This document shows positions 27,644 to 61,034 of a stretch of 61,034 bases of DNA, piece by piece. A program made the position numbers and the translations under genes. Under the pieces are notes generated by a model. That model saw only the letters and a list, made by a program, of their open reading frames with translations, did not search any database and was not told the DNA's origin. Each line of letters starts with the position of its first letter. The first letter of the stretch is position 1. Source of the stretch: a virus; IMG/VR virus record IMGVR_UViG_3300035540_000034, positions 1 through 61,034 of that record; one strand, given 5' to 3'.

Positions 27644-28089
27644 AGTATCCCTCCTTGTTACTCTAGAGTTTAAATTTAGAAAAGAAAGCATGCTTTTCTC
27701 TCTAGAGAGTGATTGTGCCTCTACAATAATATTTATAGTGGTAGGTTGTAGAGGGATTTGGTCACGTACAATTTTCCACCATTTCTAAGTCCAAGTGGTA
27801 GGTTGCACATTTCTAGAAAAAGAGGGTAGTTTTTCTGGATTAAGGGTGAATGTAACCTTTTGTATTGAAGTGTCTTAGAGACTGGTTTTACTTGATTGTA
27901 ACCAAGGAGGGGTAGGTTGTAATAATAAAAAAAAAGAGAGGCTACAGTGAGAAAGGAGAAATAATGATCACATAAACAAGAATTACGTAACATACTTAAA
28001 ACACTACAACCTCTCTGATCACAAAACAAAAGAAGGACTACCTCTGGAATAATGATATACTTGAGAGAAAAATCAGAAAAACTCTCAAC

Positions 28090-28110
28090 AAGAGGCAGCC
28101 CTCTTTTTAT
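28090..28110. terminator. Hairpin plus T-run closing the 31584-28123 operon (works better on the plus strand, possibly bidirectional)
   Basis: AAGAGG cagc CCTCTT followed by TTTTATTTAT on the plus strand. On the minus strand the U-run is displaced by 8 nt. Confidence 0.45.
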
Positions 28111-28122
28111 TTATAGCACAAC

Positions 28123-30356: not shown

Positions 30357-30656
30357 TTAGGCTACCGCCTTTACTGTATCTTTCTTTTTGTAAGTTATTG
30401 CTATGTCCATGTTTAATATTCTGGACTTACCTGCTATCTCACGTCTCTTCCTTGTATTCATCGTATCAGTGTTAAGTTCTTCCAGAAACCTAAGATAGTT
30501 GTCGTAAGAAAGGATTATCCAACTAGGTCTGAAGCCAGTTCTAGTCATAAACTCTGTTCTTACTTCTTGTATCCTGTCTGAGACGGTTTCTTTGACAGTT
30601 TGGGAATTGTCGTCTTGGGTAAATAAGTCTGGTTCTGCATTAAAAGTTTTTCCCAT
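30357..30656 (-). CDS. Hypothetical protein (99 aa)
   Basis: The stop of this ORF abuts the next start. Confidence 0.55.
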   Translation of the reverse strand: MGKTFNAEPDLFTQDDNSQTVKETVSDRIQEVRTEFMTRTGFRPSWIILSYDNYLRFLEELNTDTMNTRKRREIAGKSRILNMDIAITYKKKDTVKAVA

Positions 30657-31110
30657 GTAATCTATCCCTCTGCTTGTTAAAGCGATATTTTAGCTTGATA
30701 TGTCTATCCAGGTCAAAGCTATGTTTAGTTTGTAGCCTTCCTACTAGGTCGGCTAGCCTGATGAATGTATCAGCTATTTCTTCGGGAAAGCTGCCTTTGA
30801 TCTTCTCTTGGTAGGCCTTAAAAAACTTTTTATCATTCTGGATCTTCTCAACCTGACTCAAAGTATCAGCAGTGGGGAAGATATTTTCAGGTTTATCAGC
30901 ACAACGAAATGTCTCAAAAGCCTCAGCTAGCTCTGTAACTATCAACATAAGGCTGGTACCCAGCTCCTTTGGGTTATCCCAAAACCCTTTTTCTTTTGCC
31001 AGTTCGTGTGATTGTTTTACTAGTTTTGGAATAGTCAAGGAAGGCTTAAACACGTTAATGGTGTTGGATCGTCCTTCATAGCCTACTCTAAGTTTGTCTC
31101 GATGCTCCAT
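30640..31110 (-). CDS. mazG: MazG-like nucleoside triphosphate pyrophosphohydrolase (156 aa)
   Basis: LIVTELAEAFE and EEIADTFIRLADL motifs. ATG 31110 lies 6 nt after AAGGAG. The ORF-track N-terminal 29 aa are the tRNA read in frame. Confidence 0.7.
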   Translation of the reverse strand: MEHRDKLRVGYEGRSNTINVFKPSLTIPKLVKQSHELAKEKGFWDNPKELGTSLMLIVTELAEAFETFRCADKPENIFPTADTLSQVEKIQNDKKFFKAYQEKIKGSFPEEIADTFIRLADLVGRLQTKHSFDLDRHIKLKYRFNKQRDRLHGKNF

Positions 31111-31136
31111 TTGATCTCCTTTGTTTAGCTTAAATT

Positions 31137-31211
31137 TGGTAGCGGGGGTAGGATTCGAACCTACAACCTCAAGGTTATGGGCCTTGCGAGCTGCCATTGC
31201 TCTACCCCGCT
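31137..31211 (-). tRNA. tRNA with anticodon CAT (Met, or Ile2 if lysidinylated); CCA encoded
   Basis: Hand-folded cloverleaf. Acceptor AGCGGGG/CCCCGCT, D stem GAGC/GCTC, anticodon stem CAAGG/CCTTG with loop CCCATAA, T arm GTAGG-TTCGAAT-CCTAC. 75 nt. Confidence 0.85.
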
Positions 31212-31644: not shown

Positions 31645-31748
31645 GAAATCTTTGTTACTCAGTTATACTGCACATTTGTTTCTGTTTCAATCCTTAATCT
31701 CCACCTCTATTCAACTCAAAAGATCTTGCTGTCCAACAATCTGATGAC

Positions 31749-31787
31749 ATAATTACACAACGCTTTATGTTGTCAAGTAATTTTTTT
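31749..31787 (-). promoter_or_regulatory. Sigma70/SigA-type early promoter (leftward) with upstream A-tract
   Basis: Minus strand reads AAAAAAATTAC-TTGACA-13 nt-TGT-AATTAT. That is the -35 consensus, a 16-nt spacer (its last 3 nt are the TGn) and an extended -10. Confidence 0.5.
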
Positions 31788-31897: not shown

Positions 31898-32049
31898 CAG
31901 GAGTGAGGACTGACCGACTGACCGACCGACTAACTGACTGACTGACCGACTGACTGAGTGAGCATATATATAAATATATATATGCGAACGAAGGAAGGAG
32001 GGAAGGAAGGAAGGCAGGAGGGAGGGAAGGAGGGAAGGACGAACGACTG
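31898..32049 (+). repeat. 152-nt quasi-palindrome: (ACYG)x12 arm, AT-rich tip, (RGGM)x12 arm; Watson-Crick pairs alternate with tandem G.A oppositions
   Basis: Pairing p+q=63947 gives 75 positions per arm: 43 WC, 31 G.A/A.G and 1 A.C, with no indel. See findings. Confidence 0.9.
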
Positions 32050-32471
32050 AAAGAGGAGCAAGGAGAAAGGCGAGTAACACGAGCCTTTCGGCTCTTCTAA
32101 TATCTCTTTTCTTTGTTAATTCTTTGTAACCTTTCTTATTAGGCTTCTTCAGCCTTTGACCAAGATAAAATAAAATTGTGGACTTGCTCACCTACGCGTA
32201 AGCCTCACCTAAGGGTTGGTACCCTGTCATGAGTTTATAAAAAATACAGCCCTGAGACTCATTTGTATAGCTAGGATCAAAGATCTTTTTTAAGAAGTGG
32301 TATCGGCTTGCTTAAAAATTATCGTGTCTTAGAGAGCCTAATATTACCTCACAGCATAAACCAGCTTTAATGAGTGTGTATGAAAAAAATACAAAGCTTA
32401 TAAGTGTATAGCAGTAAAGGATGTAGGGGAATACTGACCGAGAGTCAAGTCTGGGCTGCGTAAAAAAAAAA

Positions 32472-32500
32472 TTGACAGATAGACTCTGAGAACATATCTT
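32472..32500 (+). promoter_or_regulatory. Sigma70/SigA-type promoter for the plus-strand (late/structural) block
   Basis: A10 tract, TTGACA (32472-32477), 17-nt spacer, TATCTT (32495-32500). Lies 31 nt upstream of the first plus-strand ATG. Confidence 0.45.
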
Positions 32501-32530
32501 GTCGCAGAGGATTTAAAGCTGGAATAGATT

Positions 32531-32932
32531 ATGACGGAGTTAACAGAATTGAACAGAAACAAAAAACAGATTTTAGGCTATGCACAGGCTTACCTGTCAT
32601 TGCTGTTCGAGCTGGCATCCTTACCTCCCAATGACCGTGATCGATTGAGAGGTGAACAAGAGCTCAACATGTTACAAACCGAGCTTAACAACAGGGGGCT
32701 AAAGATCGCTCCTATCAATTTAGACTTACAGGAGAGAGCAATGGATGAAAAGTATTATGTAAAATTCTACAAAACATTCAACAATGGTAGTAAGGTTAAG
32801 GATGGACGTGGCAATGTTTTGGACGTTGACCATGGTGGCAGAGTTTGCAAAGCAAAAGATCTGCGCTTCCTTATGGACTTTGGTGAGGGATTTCTACATG
32901 TAGAACGTATTCTGGACGAGAAGGTCAGCTGA
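32531..32932 (+). CDS. Hypothetical protein (133 aa), first gene of the plus-strand block
   Basis: Long ORF with a weak RBS. Confidence 0.55.
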   Translation: MTELTELNRNKKQILGYAQAYLSLLFELASLPPNDRDRLRGEQELNMLQTELNNRGLKIAPINLDLQERAMDEKYYVKFYKTFNNGSKVKDGRGNVLDVDHGGRVCKAKDLRFLMDFGEGFLHVERILDEKVS

Positions 32933-33381: not shown

Positions 33382-33407
33382 CCTCTAAATTGTCAAGAGG
33401 TTTTTTT
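33382..33407 (+). terminator. Short hairpin plus T7 run immediately upstream of the 33408 start (attenuator/terminator candidate)
   Basis: CCTCT (33382-33386), loop aaattgtca, AGAGG (33396-33400), TTTTTTT. The 3' arm doubles as the RBS. Confidence 0.35.
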
Positions 33408-34682
33408 ATGAAGACATGTCCTAAATGTGGCAACCCAATGTATGCCAACGGTTTAACTAAACTGAAAACTGGGGCAGTAAGATATTACAGATGTACTGAA
33501 TGTAATTTCAAATCAAAAGAACACGCTGGTAGTAAGCTACCACGCGGTAGAAAACCTAAACTTGTTGCTAACAATAAAGATAAATGTAAAGAATATATGC
33601 AGCAAGATGGTAGTAACTTATATACACAATACTTGGTAGACAGGGTTCCTCGAACTCTAGCGGAATCAGAAGAACTACACAATGTAGATAAATCTATCTG
33701 GCAAGCTAAGAAGTTTATCGCTTCTGCTTGGGGCTCTGATAAGAATCCCATGCACATGTTGAAAGTATGGTGGGAGCCACGTAACAGTATTGATGAAAAT
33801 ATGGCAGCAGAGTTTTTCCAGGAGGTAGCAAAAGAAGCTTATAGGCTTCCTAAAAGCAAGCTAACTAGACCGCAAGAAAGTAATAACATTCTGGAGATCT
33901 CTATTGCAGACCTACATTTAGGCAAACTATCTGAGGTAGAAGAGACTGGTGAACTTTGTAACCTAGAAGTTAGCCAAAGTAACTTCAGCTCTCTTTTAGA
34001 CGATCAGATTCGTAAGAGTTTTGCTTATGCCTATGATAAGATTCTCTTTATCGTAGGTAACGATTTCTTCCACACCGACTCTATCTATAACACTACCACA
34101 AAAGGAACCTCTCTTGATACTGATGGTAAGTGGTGGAAGCATTATAAAATAGGAACTAAGCTTCTGACTGGAGCTGTAGAGAAGTTACGCCAAATAGCTC
34201 CTGTAGAAGTTATTATTATACCCGGTAATCACGATAGACAGCGGATGTATTACGCTGGCTTACACTTGGATGCATACTTTAAGGACTGTGAAGATGTTAA
34301 AGTAGATGCTCGCATTATGAAAAACAAGTTCTACAGACATGGAAATGTACTGATCGGTTACTCTCATAAGGGTGGTAAGGATCAGGATCTGTTTGCAGAG
34401 ATGGCTTATCATCCTGCTTGGGAAACAGTCATACATAAAGAGTGGCATCTAGCGCATTTACATAGAGAGATGACCAAAGACTACAAAGGTATGATCATCA
34501 GAAGACAGAAAGCTGCTTCACCTATCTCTTCTTGGGATAAAGACCATTTCTTCTGTCATACCCTCAAGGGTGCTGATGGCTATGTCTACAACAACAACGA
34601 TGGTTTACTGGGTTACTTTCCCAGTTATCTACATATCGTGAGGGAAGATGCTGAAGTATCACAGCCACAATACAGCTGGTAA
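33408..34682 (+). CDS. Zn-ribbon + calcineurin-like metallophosphoesterase (424 aa)
   Basis: CPKCG..(19)..CTEC ribbon. IADLHLGK, VGNDFFH and IPGNHD phosphoesterase motifs. ATG 33408 is preferred to TTG 33390. Confidence 0.7.
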   Translation: MKTCPKCGNPMYANGLTKLKTGAVRYYRCTECNFKSKEHAGSKLPRGRKPKLVANNKDKCKEYMQQDGSNLYTQYLVDRVPRTLAESEELHNVDKSIWQAKKFIASAWGSDKNPMHMLKVWWEPRNSIDENMAAEFFQEVAKEAYRLPKSKLTRPQESNNILEISIADLHLGKLSEVEETGELCNLEVSQSNFSSLLDDQIRKSFAYAYDKILFIVGNDFFHTDSIYNTTTKGTSLDTDGKWWKHYKIGTKLLTGAVEKLRQIAPVEVIIIPGNHDRQRMYYAGLHLDAYFKDCEDVKVDARIMKNKFYRHGNVLIGYSHKGGKDQDLFAEMAYHPAWETVIHKEWHLAHLHREMTKDYKGMIIRRQKAASPISSWDKDHFFCHTLKGADGYVYNNNDGLLGYFPSYLHIVREDAEVSQPQYSW

Positions 34683-48299: not shown

Positions 48300-48554
48300 A
48301 TGAAAATAAAACCTACAAATGACAACTTATTAGTAGAACCTAACCATTCTAAACAAAAGGCTGGTAAGATCTACATGCCGGATACAGTTAAATCTAACAC
48401 TAAAGCTGGTAAAGTATTGGCTGTAGGAGAACTGGCTCAACATGTACAAGAGGGAGATACAATTGTTTACAGAAGTGGTATAAAGCTTAAAGACAACAAT
48501 CTGATAGTTAAGAGAGTTGACGTTGTTGCTGTAATAGGAAGAAGTAATGGCTAA
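48300..48554 (+). CDS. GroES/Cpn10-like co-chaperonin (84 aa)
   Basis: IKPTNDNLLVEP....KQKAGKIYMPDT......KAGKVLAVG.....V.EGDTIVY....L.IV...DVVAVI is collinear with bacterial GroES. ATG 48300 lies 5 nt after GGAGG. Confidence 0.7.
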   Translation: MKIKPTNDNLLVEPNHSKQKAGKIYMPDTVKSNTKAGKVLAVGELAQHVQEGDTIVYRSGIKLKDNNLIVKRVDVVAVIGRSNG

Positions 48555-51500
48555 AGATTATAGCAAGATCAATGAACTTGAATCTCCTAATTATGATGTT
48601 CGTAGTGGACGTAGCAGTCATACAATAGGTAAGAGTAGACCTTACTCTACTACTGTTGGTAGAGGTAAACCTTTCTCTACCACACTGGGTAGAGGTAAGC
48701 CTTTCTCACAGCAAATATCACGCTCTCAGGGGTTTTCTAAACCTGTAGGACGTGCAACACCTTTTAGTAAACCAATAAGCCAGAAACGTAGTTTCTCTAA
48801 GCCAGTCACCCAGAAACAGAGTTTTTCTAAACCAATAAGTCAGAAACGTAGTTTTAGTAAGCCTATTACTCAGAAGCAATCTTTCTCTAAGCCTGTAAGC
48901 CAGAAACGACCTTTTAGTTCTCAGTTATCTAAGAAGCAAGCCTTTTCCAAACCAGTATCTCAAAAGCAAAGCTTCTCTAAACCTATAGCTCAAAAGCAAA
49001 GCTTCTCTAAACCGGTAGCTCAGAGTCAGGCTTTTTCTAAACCAATAAGCAGTAAGAGGCAAGGTAGTTTTAGTTTGATAAGGTCTCAAGCTAAGATGCT
49101 GGATGTGTTTAATACTGCTCAGATAGGCTGGAGCAATGTTACTAGTAAGCAAGGTGTAAAAATAGATGAAGCTTTAGATGCAGATGCTTCTTTGGTTTCT
49201 GGAGCAGTTTCTCCTGGGACTGTGTTTGGATTAAGCAGAGATATGGGTTATGGAGTTCCAGGTTATGAAGAGGTTGTTCTTAATGAAGTCTCCACAAGAT
49301 CTACAGAATATGTTTTAAGGTATATAAATATTCAGTCAGTACCTATCAGAAGTGATGGCACAACTCCTGTAGCAAGAAGTTTGTCTGCTACTGAAGCTCC
49401 TTATATTAAAAGACCTAAAACAATAGATGTTTATATTCCGTTTGATAACGTGGCTAACTCTTATATGATACCTTTTGTACCTATTTTAGCTAAAATGAAA
49501 TTTGCAGTTAATGTGTCCACTGGAGAACGAAGGCCTTGGATTAATTTCAATATTCCAATTGGTTCTTATAATGGACAGGTTTCTACTCCTGCTAATGATA
49601 GTGATGATATGGGTTTTTACGATCTCAATAGTTCTAAGATTTCAAGGATTATCTTTAACGAAGTAGTAACTGTTGATGATAGTTATACTGACAATACTGG
49701 TGCGACTCGCCCTAACGATAGGTTTTCTATTGAAGGTAATAGCAATAGCTCAGATTTGTTTATAACGGATAGCGAGTCTGATGGCTTTGGTGATAATTGT
49801 TTGTGCCCGATAAGTGGAGAGGGTAGTTATATTATTAGAAAAACTGAATATCCGTACAAAGAGATAAGCTCAAGCTATGACGGTGACGGTGGAGCCTTAA
49901 TGTGTATAAGGTATTCTGTAACCTTTATTGACGAATTGTTTGATGGCAGAGCTATTAAGCCTGGAGACGTTAACTCTGAAGTTTCTAGTGCTGGTGTTGC
50001 TACTATGTTATTAAAACCAATCAAGTATGCTTACCAAGAATCCACAAACGACTATGATATGTTTCCTGAAAGCAATATGCAGTCTGTTAGTGTTGTACAA
50101 GATGATAAAGTAGCTTTTTCTAATTCTGAAAAAGTCAGTGATGATGATAATGTTGATGACTATTCCTATACCTTTACTCCTAGTGGTTATGATCAAAGAA
50201 AGATAGGTATAATTACAGGCAGTGTAAGTTCAAGCAATACTTTTGTTTTTTATATAGACGAACCTACCCATAATTTTGCCCATCGTCAGTATGACTTTAA
50301 CCTTCTTAATCGAGATCTTAGGATTACTTCTATTAGTAGTATAAAATTTAAAAAGGTTGAGGTTATAGATATACTGCCAGAGAAGGAAATGTATAAAGTT
50401 ACTGTTACAGTAAACGGTTCCAAAGACCTTACTGTAATGCTTGAATATAAAAAGATAGATCAATGGGAGCTTGGAAATAAAGTTGATGACTTTGACCCTA
50501 ATACTAAAATATTGACAGCAAAATATTTAGAGTATCCTGAAGATCTTTTTGTAAACTTTGGTACTAGTTATACGATAAATGATACTGCGTTAGGTATTGC
50601 AAATTTTGCAGGAAGTTGTAGCGAGTGTTCTCATGCATTATATGAAAAGACCATAGAACCTCAAGTTATGAACAGTATTGCTCAAGCGGTCACGAAGCCT
50701 GTTTTAATAGAAGAAGACTTTGTGCTTGGTAATGGTTTTATTGCTTCTGTTCCTGATGTTAGTATGGGCGAAAAACCTTTTGCTATATGGAAAGATGAAT
50801 ATGAGTTTTGTATGTTAGGCTCATCGCTTCCTTTAATATTTCCACACAAAAATCCTTATTCTTTAAATATGCAGGCTCTACGAGATATTGGAGTACCAGT
50901 AGGATCTTCGGACTTGGAAGCTATACATAATTACGCTTCACCCATAACAGGCAGTATGAATTTTCTCTTTACTCCCTCTATAACTAATGGTAATGTATAT
51001 GCTTCTATGCCTACAAAAACTAAAGAATATTTAGGCGGCAATTTAAAAAGCAATCATTATGGAAATAAAATACAAAAAGTTGTGAATGACTTTGGAGCAA
51101 AGTTTATACAATACAATAACAGGTTTTATCAAGCAGCAAATAACTATGAAAGACTTTATCTTGGTAGTAAAAGGGTTGTTCCTGAAGTTGGGGAGTTCTT
51201 TTGTATTAAAGGATTCATACTGGCATCTGGAGAAACGGATACCAACCTTTATAAAATAACAGTCAATGAAACTTCTGGTGAGCTAATTACTGAAAAAACA
51301 GCAACAATAGCTGGCAAGGTTCTGGAAGAGCCTATCAGTAAAAGCAATGGGATTTTACTTCCTGTTAGAAAGTCTGGTAGAAACTTTTTATATACTATAC
51401 TACCAGACGGTAAATCAATGTATGTAAAAGAGATTGCGAATAGAGAAGTTGTAAAGAAGTTAACAATAGAAGGAGTGGGAGACATTTACATCGCCTTCAA

Positions 51501-51981
51501 CTACAACGACTCTAGTAATACTGATATTTATATATATTCTGTAACCAATGATCTTGGTATTGTTACTCACTCTAAAGTAACCTCAGATAGTGCTATTGTT
51601 AATCTCAGTGAACATAAAGGTTTAATATATACTTCGGTAACCATTGAAGCAGCTGAAGGTGAGGACTACACGCTTGGTGCAGATCTTATCGGGTCAACCT
51701 ACCAAATTACCAGTTCTCAGCTAAATATGGGTAAATACCCTGAGTCAGAATCTATAGCTGACAACATAACTTTTACCTATAAGGACGCCTGTTCTGCTGG
51801 GTATCAAGTTACTATAAATGACACAGATTATGGGCCTTATAACTTTAGTAACAGTAAGGTACATAGGGTTATGCTACCCAAACAACCAATCAAAACTTTT
51901 AAATACAAAGTTCTGGATTGCAACGGAACACTTCTGGATGTAAAACTGGGAGTAAAAAACTTTAACGGAAACATTGAATAG
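48547..51981 (+). CDS. Large tail/virion protein (1,144 aa) with a basic N-terminal decapeptide repeat array
   Basis: About 15 copies of a (Q/G)(K/R)xxFSKPxx unit, then a long AT-rich beta-type region. Confidence 0.6.
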   Translation: MAKDYSKINELESPNYDVRSGRSSHTIGKSRPYSTTVGRGKPFSTTLGRGKPFSQQISRSQGFSKPVGRATPFSKPISQKRSFSKPVTQKQSFSKPISQKRSFSKPITQKQSFSKPVSQKRPFSSQLSKKQAFSKPVSQKQSFSKPIAQKQSFSKPVAQSQAFSKPISSKRQGSFSLIRSQAKMLDVFNTAQIGWSNVTSKQGVKIDEALDADASLVSGAVSPGTVFGLSRDMGYGVPGYEEVVLNEVSTRSTEYVLRYINIQSVPIRSDGTTPVARSLSATEAPYIKRPKTIDVYIPFDNVANSYMIPFVPILAKMKFAVNVSTGERRPWINFNIPIGSYNGQVSTPANDSDDMGFYDLNSSKISRIIFNEVVTVDDSYTDNTGATRPNDRFSIEGNSNSSDLFITDSESDGFGDNCLCPISGEGSYIIRKTEYPYKEISSSYDGDGGALMCIRYSVTFIDELFDGRAIKPGDVNSEVSSAGVATMLLKPIKYAYQESTNDYDMFPESNMQSVSVVQDDKVAFSNSEKVSDDDNVDDYSYTFTPSGYDQRKIGIITGSVSSSNTFVFYIDEPTHNFAHRQYDFNLLNRDLRITSISSIKFKKVEVIDILPEKEMYKVTVTVNGSKDLTVMLEYKKIDQWELGNKVDDFDPNTKILTAKYLEYPEDLFVNFGTSYTINDTALGIANFAGSCSECSHALYEKTIEPQVMNSIAQAVTKPVLIEEDFVLGNGFIASVPDVSMGEKPFAIWKDEYEFCMLGSSLPLIFPHKNPYSLNMQALRDIGVPVGSSDLEAIHNYASPITGSMNFLFTPSITNGNVYASMPTKTKEYLGGNLKSNHYGNKIQKVVNDFGAKFIQYNNRFYQAANNYERLYLGSKRVVPEVGEFFCIKGFILASGETDTNLYKITVNETSGELITEKTATIAGKVLEEPISKSNGILLPVRKSGRNFLYTILPDGKSMYVKEIANREVVKKLTIEGVGDIYIAFNYNDSSNTDIYIYSVTNDLGIVTHSKVTSDSAIVNLSEHKGLIYTSVTIEAAEGEDYTLGADLIGSTYQITSSQLNMGKYPESESIADNITFTYKDACSAGYQVTINDTDYGPYNFSNSKVHRVMLPKQPIKTFKYKVLDCNGTLLDVKLGVKNFNGNIE
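48628..49077 (+). repeat. In-frame 30-nt tandem repeat array (about 15 units) encoding QK(Q/R)SFSKP(I/V)x
   Basis: Read directly: cagaaacgtagtttctctaagccagtcacc and variants. Confidence 0.9.
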
Positions 51982-60500: not shown

Positions 60501-61034
60501 GGTGATAACACTCAACTCAACAAAGCTGTTGCTGTGTATAGTGAGACTCATGAAAGTATCAGGAAAGCCAACAATACTCTCAACAAACGTATTACTGACC
60601 AGTCGGAACGTGAAGGTATTTATATAGATTTAGCTAAAACCTTTAACACACCGCTTGATACCAGTAAAGGTGATTATGAGATTACCTCTAAAGAAAATAT
60701 TAGAGAAGACTTTAGAGGAGAAGCCTCCGATAGTGTTATACCGAAAGTTGCTATGTCTCAAGAGAAGCTAATCGATTTTGCTAGAGCTCATATTAACAAG
60801 TTAACAAAAGATAAGAAAAATGTAAGCAAAGAAATCTATGAGATTGTTAAAGGGTTTTATGATAATCCTAAAGTGCAACTCGATAACAGTAGTATAGAGA
60901 AGGTTCTAAGTTATCTAGTTAAAGAGGAACTGATAGCTGCGGTTGAAGGAAATAAAAGCAGCAAGACTCATTACATAGTCAATCTTGCTCGTACACCTGT
61001 ACAAAAGCAAGGCCAAGATGGATTGTTTATCCTT
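54531..61034 (+). CDS. 5' segment (2,168 codons) of the 2,923-aa giant protein; the ORF runs off the window end and continues at 128..2395
   Basis: ATG 54531 lies 8 nt after AAAGGA and after two in-frame TAA codons. I translated most of 54531..61034 codon by codon (all of 56460..61034) and met no stop. Absent from the ORF track because there is no stop in the window. Confidence 0.85.
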   Translation, partial: MSSIGTSTLNKSKYQPVFTSQEDTQILHKLAEHTDKKFQDNDVLNSLRKFRESTQVKGNTGAQTLLAVHEHPGRVYGLTDSNTNDTVAIYRGLQTETAEMALRVYKIHGEDKEAAKKAIEFIDNSAKDLSGFNSNKTKEQGRFQNRLAAFSASNKNYAAGYIDYFGELDGGWHQTSLDAGIKLTTDLGAAVTLASQKPLLGKVAGFILGQRDEMAAVRENLQQHESFAGLSRGQQQLWNTVGLGLTVAETWATGGIAKGIGKATMTHFMLNSTGDALMSNVGLDRKYISGENPHVGSLIQTAALDYLTYKATMGVTGILAESVPSLSSSFYNGMMTNVWASAAAPVARLGTDVLADTVVDYAFYNVGEKLLPFENTAQTKRQFGSDSSISGNIVNRLGMRIAASLTKSALTKKGITGMSQTYDWAKKNYGSKGVNKLGARIFALTNSTMPSHIMEIDSQLKKQYKAYNNTADAVKPYGVSGKPLVSKQMYTAYYMSKEMATNSIFRDLVDYKFNPDATKINNFLTSKDVSPFKAVSKNLASLGARSFFRSNLSLTDTPDITDMIKIMQATNPKLKLDASDLDSEGEKALMGAFTEDLFIKLSEIYDKHKADPEVARDEVNKFLGAMAKNIEITGFSNIPKGVAEDGSIAHIINSSSAEEAFNKTNFTDQEGKMVIFNQVGKFFGESGDADSSEKLAVEVDPETSLEFFRWAEDIRTTQPVLVVRNRTGIHNTELAMPKDSQYRSAMNRAVEDFGAHVFRRVYNINTPEGMKEIASNDPDYGNELNKVLVDVKRKMENLKRVSKLQALPDDSAELVKQFMTPQQIKTLLQHDNKLLDEWNHGNKEDVLEQVRKTKKAGDKEAKRLQAVISAVTGDLSSLIKEPNFIDLSVGGFTVDTNNLRWSSNRINNTDYDGFREVATRTAPTRNQQPEEFLSKLHKTAGVLLKNYTDKLVSEANGTGRYQDEGGRSAEVMRLLVKTGMLVEAVGNRIDTEVLEYSQKQFENNQEAISKHTDLQKLVDAPGFRYIAQLNKKTGEDNSEVATIAMFNLLEIPYNIGKVRQQVVPVLNQIGVDKKGSTFFAMLASLDDKEDSSAEVRAAMRATNSGLNPYKKMTVRVNGEDITLNNGEYGLNEIEHIRYHEKHKSTPVSPEEKKGMLRRGLALAAQKLADIEYHREMANNNPTTKNDMDNIRKTVESKVKAILNDDIDNDIVVDLKLRQEENSNPRAINKKPFVVESIKVDEATSKQTVAFDRVYNTSFKVLRSNEAAAGGSVVTDRAARTEFEIKKTIKDEDGNEIDNAAIITDFKETNDLLIKAIKDTGINVSTMVRTIMAKQRAISDPKNLEKDTADAINSVLKKYAGNFMDKLSTEEQQRDFAYQLMRREKFLSNLRQKLDLTVKDLGLGGRVDTSFMLEKSEVYLSNDNYSVIDLSLPKQLGKNITASDFFERMKDKGLRIVGMVGNGSKLLVVDTPASGRNLTSREQVKIRKTLKDISHSYKDLYKDAPDEVKESSRNYQLLKDDEIDSLLKQAIEKQGAEDVPNKGNTRKSFYNTIVRKLLDNLKAKVENEKIGDKTVKQVLEEVHNKDGGDLNREAASTKRRFTAALEEVNKRFSQLKDIVNNNQDEMDSETRQKYTDLLNAYRTVSALSKNAANDMDELFNLKEKLGEAKAKKEEFKRHIESLKKSKTQEVNDIVHDSYIRVLNELEGLADKEITEAEARKSPHIALDIEKKLDVVKNIDENIDKLGKLKDPVKIEEMFWRYVVYGSKAYTTSAKDIAKYTSLMTTGKFTSEQADKIIKQMNQAGTRKIRFAIVKSNEIDGVPLNDGTTGVAGSFFRTMSGLFGKQMTKLAYNDSSTSLKMKTTSSEAFIGKTLGYDKDGNKIVINKNPTNNNELDSENTFVLTTDTIKQIGPEFLKLIGITDKDLTGEANVVLTSDISITGNSNGRKKFKTFLSNLGMQIDSHSSARDLKTGNQGPLMSEVVAKMNQALLDGDNTQLNKAVAVYSETHESIRKANNTLNKRITDQSEREGIYIDLAKTFNTPLDTSKGDYEITSKENIREDFRGEASDSVIPKVAMSQEKLIDFARAHINKLTKDKKNVSKEIYEIVKGFYDNPKVQLDNSSIEKVLSYLVKEELIAAVEGNKSSKTHYIVNLARTPVQKQGQDGLFIL
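60908..61034. repeat. Terminal direct repeat, copy 2 (identical to 1..127)
   Basis: See copy 1. Confidence 0.95.

Follow-up and report, generated by a model that had tools for sequence, protein, structure and literature searches.

A 152-nt quasi-palindrome of Watson-Crick pairs and tandem G·A steps in the divergent gap of an uncultured phage genome

Does a long quasi-palindrome in which Watson-Crick (WC) pairs alternate with G·A oppositions act as a structure encoded in one DNA strand only, or is it two simple repeats that came to lie side by side? The question is raised by a 152-nt element at positions 31898-32049 of the IMG/VR virus record IMGVR_UViG_3300035540_000034, a single instance located in a non-coding gap of the genome of an uncultured, temperate phage. 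We analyzed the whole 61,034-nt stretch (hereafter the window) and call the strand as written the + strand. Our preferred reading, to which we assign a probability of about 0.3, is that the element is a single-strand-specific DNA fold-back that aids unwinding, priming or helicase entry in replication. The evidence that carries this tentative reading is a pairing register in which the two arms co-vary, together with a predicted fold that is open to one strand and costly for the other.

Architecture and pairing of the element

We re-derived the pairing from the sequence and reproduced to the base what the initial annotation had reported. In the ungapped register p+q=63947, positions 31898-31972 lie opposite 32049-31975, giving 75 positions per arm around a loop of AA (31973-31974). 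The register contains 43 WC pairs, 31 G·A or A·G oppositions and one A·C at 31932/32015, with zero other mismatch types and zero indels, and its 16 tandem steps were confirmed, 15 of them being GA/AG. From 5' to 3', the element reads CAG, GAGTGAG, (GACY)12, GAGTGAG, a 20-nt AT tract, CGAACGA, (RGGM)12, CGAACGA and CTG, where Y is T or C, R is A or G and M is A or C. The repeat finder TRF independently detected the two period-4 arrays and the AT tract. The units that the annotation called ACYG belong to the same left array read one base out of phase from (GACY)12, except that one unit is AACT. Reverse-complementing the left arm and swapping each 5'-TC-3' to 5'-GA-3' gives the right arm, so that a left-arm GA always faces a right-arm GA. 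The parts of the element and the promoter matches on its two sides are as follows.

31749-31776, - strand (read from 31776 to 31749): leftward sigma-70-like promoter match, TTGACA-16-AATTAT, 10/12 consensus positions, 122 nt left of the element
31898-31900, + strand: CAG, base of the left arm, three WC pairs with CTG at 32047-32049
31901-31907, + strand: outer GAGTGAG flank, whose step at 31905 (TGAG/CGAA) is a canonical Y-GA-R on both strands
31908-31955, + strand: left array (GACY)12, made of seven GACT, four GACC and one AACT, with no more than two identical units adjacent
31956-31962, + strand: inner GAGTGAG flank, with two TGAG/CGAA steps of canonical sheared-G·A context that adjoin the tip
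31962-31985, both strands: tip, GCATATATATA-AA-TATATATATGC, a perfect duplex palindrome of 11 bp per arm (inverted repeat I5)
31964-31983: AT tract, 20 nt, 0% GC
31985-31991, + strand: inner CGAACGA flank, paired with 31956-31962
31992-32039, + strand: right array (RGGM)12, made of seven AGGA, four GGGA and one AGGC, a unit-for-unit mirror of the left array
32040-32046, + strand: outer CGAACGA flank, which closes the stem with CTG at 32047-32049
32050-32078, + strand: purine-rich tail, GAAAGAGGAGCAAGGAGAAAGGCGAG, which extends the right arm and lies within a C-poor + strand tract common to relatives
32472-32500, + strand: rightward sigma-70-like promoter match, TTGACA-17-TATCTT with an upstream A-tract, 10/12 consensus positions, 423 nt right of the element

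The arms have a GC content of 56-59%, compared with 0% in the AT tract and 38% in the genome. Purine runs of 25 and 24 nt, longer than any others in the genome, lie in the right array on either side of C32015, and the right arm contains four GGG runs. An open reading frame (ORF) that traverses the element yields a low-complexity peptide, and coding through it is not credible.

To quantify how unusual the fold-back is, we scanned the whole window on both strands for ungapped fold-backs (WC +2, G·A +1, G·T 0, other -4); the element scored 109 and the runner-up 30. The choice of T or C in each left-array unit is matched by A or G in its partner in 12/12 cases, as the initial annotation had noticed, with the four GACC units exactly opposite the four GGGA units. 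This match was reached in 0.2% of 200,000 permutations of the right-arm units (p~0.002; exact 1/495). The arrays have the same unit number, 12, each is bracketed by one heptamer occurring twice, the left and right heptamers pair mutually, and the lone odd base of either array falls at the same pair. The exact GACC/GGGA opposition is a signature of maintained pairing, and together with the equal unit number, the pairing flanks and the palindromic AT tip it bears out the annotation's view that the two tracts are not independent microsatellites. The arrays do not look like slippage-prone, hypermutable microsatellites either, as they are interrupted, mirrored and identical in two assemblies, and the long identical runs, independent arrays and length polymorphism of hypervariable (phase-variable) tetranucleotide repeats were not found (identical neighbors number at most 2). 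The four T:A to C:G differences between units look, from the sequence, like ordinary compensatory change in a helix. A symmetric dimeric protein bound to duplex DNA is an unlikely cause of the mirror covariation because the arms agree at the duplex level in only 2 of every 4 bp, and intrastrand pairing would be the simpler cause. There is no neutral route from a palindrome to sixteen TC to GA replacements with the R pattern kept.

The asymmetry between the strands was examined by folding both strands of the 191-nt segment 31880-32070, as the initial annotation had proposed. With RNA parameters, the + strand formed the full hairpin at -66.4 kcal/mol (z -12.8, 0/200 shuffles), and the - strand reached -23.8 kcal/mol (z -2.0); for the 152 nt alone the values were -63.5 and -20.1 kcal/mol, respectively. 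With DNA parameters, the minimum-energy structure was the AT tip alone on either strand, the sole part that folds on both, and the full stem came to -6.4 kcal/mol on the + strand and +1.7 kcal/mol on the - strand. The claim that a fold-back is favored on the written strand holds in both comparisons, and we regard the strand asymmetry of the predicted folding as well supported. The accompanying claim of stable tandem sheared G·A pairs held in part. High-throughput melting data assign exceptionally strong stacking to GA-AG tandems and find C·T very weak (PMC8163305), but the DNA parameters give no gain beyond the tip, and 3/16 steps are canonical. The ViennaRNA DNA parameter set granted tandem G·A steps no net stabilizing credit. 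Nuclear magnetic resonance work on CGAG repeats of the human AUTS2 promoter has shown DNA hairpins that are thermally stable and consist of consecutive blocks, each with two WC pairs and a tandem sheared G·A (PMC10085684).

A proposed one-strand fold-back and the points against it

How might such a fold-back work? It would be strand-asymmetric and would matter only once the duplex had been opened. The 0%-GC palindromic AT tract, clamped by the GC-richer arms, would be the site of supercoil-driven melting or extrusion, and promoters on both sides firing outward would raise the negative supercoiling there. (AT)n cruciforms extrude readily in supercoiled DNA, and the GCATATATATA/TATATATATGC palindrome is of this kind, except that in the element it is merely the tip of a longer stem that can be extended on one strand. 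From the tip, the + strand would zip outward, initially through the two TGAG/CGAA blocks of canonical sheared-G·A context and then through 12 C-Y/R-G WC dinucleotide blocks braced by 5'-GA/3'-AG tandems. The - strand, with C·T or T·C at the same 32 positions, could not follow, and ~130 nt of it would stay unpaired. This asymmetry of folded and open strands could serve as a single-strand initiation or entry signal for the phage DnaB-like helicase/primase or for a host primosome. Perfect 75-bp palindromes are poorly tolerated by bacteria, and G·A in place of full complementarity would avoid one. We infer that the element extrudes in vivo, that it acts at the DNA rather than the RNA level, and that its role is in replication; the DNA level is favored over RNA because no convincing promoter reads into the element. 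A more specific proposal, that the element is a selected 16-block 'G·A zipper', an asymmetric cruciform and single-strand initiation (ssi) signal that exposes the complementary strand for helicase or primase loading, is doubtful.

Several observations weigh against the one-strand fold-back. The alternation of two WC pairs with two G·A oppositions is automatic for any (GACT)n followed by (AGGA)n because AGGA reversed is AGGA, giving G·A, A·G, C:G and T:A in register. With the ViennaRNA DNA parameters, the full + strand structure (-6.4 kcal/mol) is about as stable as the tip alone and falls short of the minimum-energy structure (-8.0 kcal/mol), so the 64 positions beyond the AT tip add ~0 net gain on the + strand, in addition to being costly on the - strand. 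Only 3 of the 16 steps (31905, 31956 and 31960, two of which adjoin the tip) are Y-GA-R, the canonical context, on both strands; of the others, ten are half-canonical (YGAC/GGAR), one is mixed (R-GA-R/Y-GA-Y), one is AA/GC and one has R-GA-Y on both strands. The element was found in none of seven relatives (~50% identity in the large terminase, TerL), where gapped and ungapped fold-back searches gave noise-level G·A-rich alignments, so the alignment of related phages that the annotation had called for offers no Y/R covariation between genomes. The element lies at the cumulative GC-skew minimum, but the skew switch coincides with the switch in gene orientation and is no independent evidence. 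The helicase/primase gene (632-aa protein) is at 10.6-12.5 kb, 20 kb from the element. Finally, a module at 27.69-27.92 kb, described below, is kept in the relatives and makes a more conventional candidate for an origin or operator; an initiator-binding origin at the G·A element becomes less likely for that reason.

Comparison with known systems separates what is familiar in the element from what is not. The initial annotation's statement that no described element has this architecture was too strong, in view of the CGAG blocks of the AUTS2 promoter (PMC10085684). Pericentromeric satellite repeats form sheared-G·A fold-backs as well (PMC11014236), and the CGAG-block and satellite hairpins resemble the element in combining, on the purine-carrying strand only, two WC pairs with a 5'-GA-3'/3'-AG-5' tandem in consecutive blocks, which are reported to be stackable as well as thermally stable (PMC10085684). 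The differences are that CGAG blocks are self-pairing homo-repeats with symmetric Y-GA-R and 2-6 blocks, whereas the phage element pairs (GACY)12 with (RGGA)12 in 16 blocks, mostly in half-canonical context, and its WC dinucleotide varies and co-varies. Measured against tandem sheared-G·A helices of the CGAG type, the element has the antiparallel alternation of WC pairs with GA/AG but not the consistent Y-GA-R context on both strands.

Hairpins that contain G·A also occur at priming and initiation sites, namely the G4 ori, RSF1010 ssiA and ssiB, and the promoters of the N4 virion RNA polymerase (vRNAP) (PMC13037366). Like the element, these are strand-specific, imperfect and non-coding, and they act when single-stranded or extruded, with G·A aiding stability (PMC13037366). 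They are 7-60 nt long with one G·A at the loop and have known cognate enzymes, whereas the element is 152 nt long with 31 G·A oppositions. In its predicted fold, the element is a strand-specific, imperfect, non-coding hairpin of the sort that characterizes single-strand initiation sites (ssi/sso, G4-type). The annotation's suggestion of an N4-type hairpin promoter does not fit, as promoters of that type depend on a virion RNA polymerase (RNAP) and on a hairpin with a 5-7 bp stem and a 3-nt loop, whereas the element has 75 stem positions and a 2-4 nt loop, and the large ORFs tested (largest 1144 aa) included nothing RNAP-like, with no RNAP match in Pfam or PHROG. The ORFs searched yielded no RNAP of N4 or T7 type, no protelomerase and no HUH Rep.

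The structural motif (CGAG blocks, centromeric G·A fold-backs and G·A mini-hairpins) and the unit sequences, as microsatellites, are already known. What appears to be new is the combination of a 16-block hetero-paired stem, co-varying WC dinucleotides and a palindromic AT tip, unique in its genome and placed at the divergence point. If functional, the element would offer, in a lineage without cultured relatives, a candidate for a replication, priming or packaging signal encoded in structure. Strand choice would then be written directly into non-canonical pairing (G·A on one strand being C·T on the other), and a long palindrome-like signal would escape the genetic instability that true palindromes bring. 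The element would also be a natural 16-block test case for tandem G·A helices outside the canonical Y-GA-R context. Should the 'G·A zipper' prove true, it would found a new class of origins or priming sites encoded in structure and would be the longest natural tandem-G·A helix known. If not functional, it is a clear case of two juxtaposed microsatellites mimicking a designed structure.

Relatives, simple repeats and rival explanations

What stands at this position in other genomes? Searches of the region against INPHARED by megablast and blastn gave no match, and no cultured phage is closer than ~25% TerL identity, the nearest at that level including the Pseudomonas phages DMS3 and MP38. Identity to TerL homologues reaches 50-59% at most. 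The relatives compared (L124, L127, L128, L132, L138, L140 and L142) were the seven with enough upstream DNA, and they share a divergent architecture with a TTGACA late promoter after an A-tract. Upstream of that promoter they have TA runs flanked by perfect GC hairpins, G runs, TACTATAC or TACTT arrays, and these blocks are C-poor and purine-rich on the + strand (C fraction 0.00-0.08, compared with 0.16-0.21 locus-wide). Judged from these sequences, what is constrained ahead of the late promoter seems to be composition (C depletion) and not a particular sequence. The C-depleted + strand sites are at 2400-2500 in L124, 1250-1340 in L127, 5040-5140 in L128, 7860-7940 in L138, 7300-7390 in L140 and 7260-7860 in L142; at its strongest the depletion leaves a C fraction of 0.00-0.05, purines reach 0.87 (L142), and the sequences are mutually unrelated. 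On the late side of the element, the 430-aa ORF 33390-34682 has no relatives in IMG/VR, and a 133-aa neighboring ORF has zero homologues.

The pattern TGACYGACYGACYG-N18-48-GGARGGARGGARGGA had 0 matches in IMG/VR, and of 125 (GACY)>=6 arrays (at least six units) at 119 IMG/VR loci, none had an RGGA, inverted RGTC or purine partner within 300 nt. The same pattern had 83 matches in metagenomes, and those inspected were all plain compound microsatellites, e.g. (GACT)n(GAAT)n(GGAA)n, which are long and mostly pure and have fold-back scores no lower than that of the phage element. These probably eukaryotic repeats share their units with the phage arrays and hence the same automatic register; they differ in having long pure runs and in lacking an AT-palindromic centre, pairing flanks and mirrored units, whereas the phage arrays are interrupted and an exact mirror. 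Some JGI (Ga...), GenBank (JAAUY...) and seawater (ENA OWNT01) contigs contain such repeats in abundance, and the metagenome contigs L146-L225 (e.g. L179, L183 and L210), with very long fold-backs of two WC pairs and two G·A on paper, constitute a natural control.

The reliability of the sequence was checked against other assemblies. The window is a JGI contig, and the Logan assembly L120 (SRR11799980) is 100% identical to it over 2.5 kb, including the element, so the element is not an artefact of one assembler: two assemblers agree, although the samples are possibly not independent. A further contig, L121 (SRR11804275), is identical from 31974 rightward and includes the right arm. Same-phage contigs retrieved as cluster members or by exact-protein look-ups were identical or ended at the element: L121 starts at the exact centre of the hairpin (31974), L123 ends exactly at 31898, the first base of the element, and in JGI sample 3300035102 the stretch 31898-32740 is absent from the two contigs retrieved (L123 and L234), L234 resuming near 32740. 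These ends probably reflect difficulty in assembling low-complexity DNA rather than a physical end, because contigs of the relatives likewise break at their own low-complexity blocks. L123 departs from the window left of 31055 and is a mosaic variant of the same phage.

Among the rival explanations, it is possible, if doubtful, that the element is a functionless by-product, a compound microsatellite or quasi-palindrome in a fast-evolving spacer where selection acts only on bulk properties such as spacing and composition. This would agree with the unrelated low-complexity blocks that the relatives hold at the same place, with + strand C depletion as the only common feature, with the juxtaposed (GACT)n/(GGAA)n arrays in the same register that are common in metagenome contigs, and with the breaks of assemblies at such blocks. 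It leaves the mirror covariation (p~0.002), the equal unit numbers, the doubly paired flanks and the palindromic tip without a cause, as well as the 16/16 TC to GA replacements that lack a neutral mutational route; moreover, mirrored variants are absent from the metagenome examples, and 0/125 of the viral arrays have an inverted or purine partner. The same pairing could be used in RNA, and we consider this unlikely: a + strand transcript would fold into a stable rod of tandem G·A 2x2 loops, without a long perfect duplex for RNase III, and might be a regulatory or protein-binding RNA or prime through an R-loop via its purine-rich 3' arm. The complete + strand fold with RNA parameters (-66.4 kcal/mol against -23.8 on the - strand) favors this account, and so do T:A to C:G changes via G·U, which are typical of RNA helices, and the purine-rich right arm and tail; purine-rich sequence favors RNA:DNA hybrids. 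Both neighboring promoters, however, point away from the element, the only + match upstream is weak (31744-31771, 9/12) and mirrors the leftward promoter, and the promoter/terminator scan found no terminator-like site. No Rfam family matches the element (one sub-threshold chance match lies outside it), and the flank 32040-32200 folds ordinarily (z -1.3). It is very improbable that sequencing or assembly errors produced the element from a genuinely perfect palindrome or from modified DNA; assemblies often fail at it, but the JGI contig and L120 have identical 152 nt, a third contig has the identical right arm, and a systematic one-arm miscall of TC as GA has no known basis.

Two other roles were also weighed. 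A packaging or terminus signal, a pac-type site heading the late operon with short-unit arrays around a central cut region, is quite unlikely. The layout of P1 pac resembles this. The element is upstream of the late/terminase operon, contigs start at the hairpin centre (L121) or end at 31898 (L123), the circular assembly is consistent with permuted genomes, and the ~25% identity TerL relatives include DMS3 and MP38, which we take to be Mu-like headful packagers. However, loss of coverage and tangled assembly graphs at (AT)n and period-4 repeats account for the contig ends just as well, the 4-bp period does not match the helical repeat spacing for TerS binding, the putative terS is 2.6 kb away, and the element is not kept in relatives with homologous terminases. 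We hold it to be just as improbable that the locus is a supercoil sink or switch, in which an AT cruciform, with the arms partly extruded or the 50-nt purine tract in another non-B form (triplex or G-quadruplex), would take up the negative supercoils that transcription generates and so link the early and late promoters or shield them from each other. Its position between two outward-facing promoter matches, the perfectly palindromic AT tip, the longest purine runs of the genome with four GGG runs, and the purine-rich, C-poor tracts at the same place in relatives would suit this role, but the promoters are consensus matches only, the mirror symmetry of the purine tract is weak (best score 10 over 22 nt), and the covariation of the left and right arms is left unexplained.

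Other identities were set aside. The weak mirror symmetry of the purine arm does not favor canonical H-DNA. A serine-integrase attP, prompted by the non-palindromic central AA, was set aside on distance alone, as the int gene is 16 kb away. For a telomere-resolution site, complementarity extends to 43/75 positions, the flanks are not inverted copies and there is no protelomerase in the ORFs searched. An iteron-type origin would have AT-rich unwinding DNA, which is present, but the units are 4 nt rather than the size of an initiator site, and the helicase/primase gene is distant.

Genomic setting and the module at 27.7-27.9 kb

The first and last 127 nt of the window are identical (1-127 and 60908-61034), indicating a circular assembly of 60,907 bp, from a permuted genome or a collapsed repeat. 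Genes are on the + strand from 32531 round to 8069 and on the - strand from 31584 down to 8106, and the element occupies the one divergent gap of the genome. The late side encodes an SU10-type capsid, a P22-type portal and the large terminase. Among the products of the leftward arm are RusA, a large serine integrase, a Sak4-like protein and a DnaB-like helicase whose N-terminus belongs to a PHROG primase family. Both promoter-like sites that the initial annotation placed around the element exist; promoter and terminator scans of the window and the relatives stayed at shuffle level, and these sites are consensus matches alone. Host assignment through GTDB genomes returned only phage contigs binned into metagenome-assembled genomes of unrelated phyla.

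The module kept in the relatives is a TAAGCATGCTTA palindrome followed by ATAGGTAGGTTAG...CCCC, which in the window lies away from the element, at 27.69-27.92 kb.

27644-28122: non-coding segment within the leftward gene arm that holds the window copy
~27685-27696: palindrome AAAGCATGCTTT
27740, 27797 and 27911, + strand: three exact copies of GGTAGGTTG (cluster 27740-27919)

The module is present in 7/7 relatives (L124 at 2173, L127 at 1124, L128 at 4842, L132 at 7278, L138 at 7438, L140 at 6840 and L142 at 6913), and by its sequence it looks like an iteron/operator cluster or a structured RNA. In most relatives its - strand folds better, with more G·U pairs.

Three TG-GT-T-A(6-10)-TACA-like copies lie between the element and the late promoter, at 32230-32248, 32375-32393 and 32457-32472; the last forms the A-tract/-35 region of the late promoter, and the copies may be extra promoters or regulator sites. 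ARAGORN detected a single tRNA-Met (anticodon CAT) outside the element, at 31137-31211 on the - strand, between pyrophosphatase-like and RusA-like ORFs. The mechanically called ORF 30640-31197 overlaps this tRNA and is probably shorter (156 aa as called in L120). Within the 1144-aa ORF 48547-51981, three 30-nt tandem-repeat blocks occupy 48635-49022, and this N-terminal repeat stretch has just low-complexity Extensin/HC2-like Pfam matches. Four TerL homologues (P0014, P0016, P0027 and P0029, ~845 aa) are ~340 aa longer and carry LAGLIDADG/Hint-type Pfam domains, suggesting that the excess length is probably due to intein insertions.

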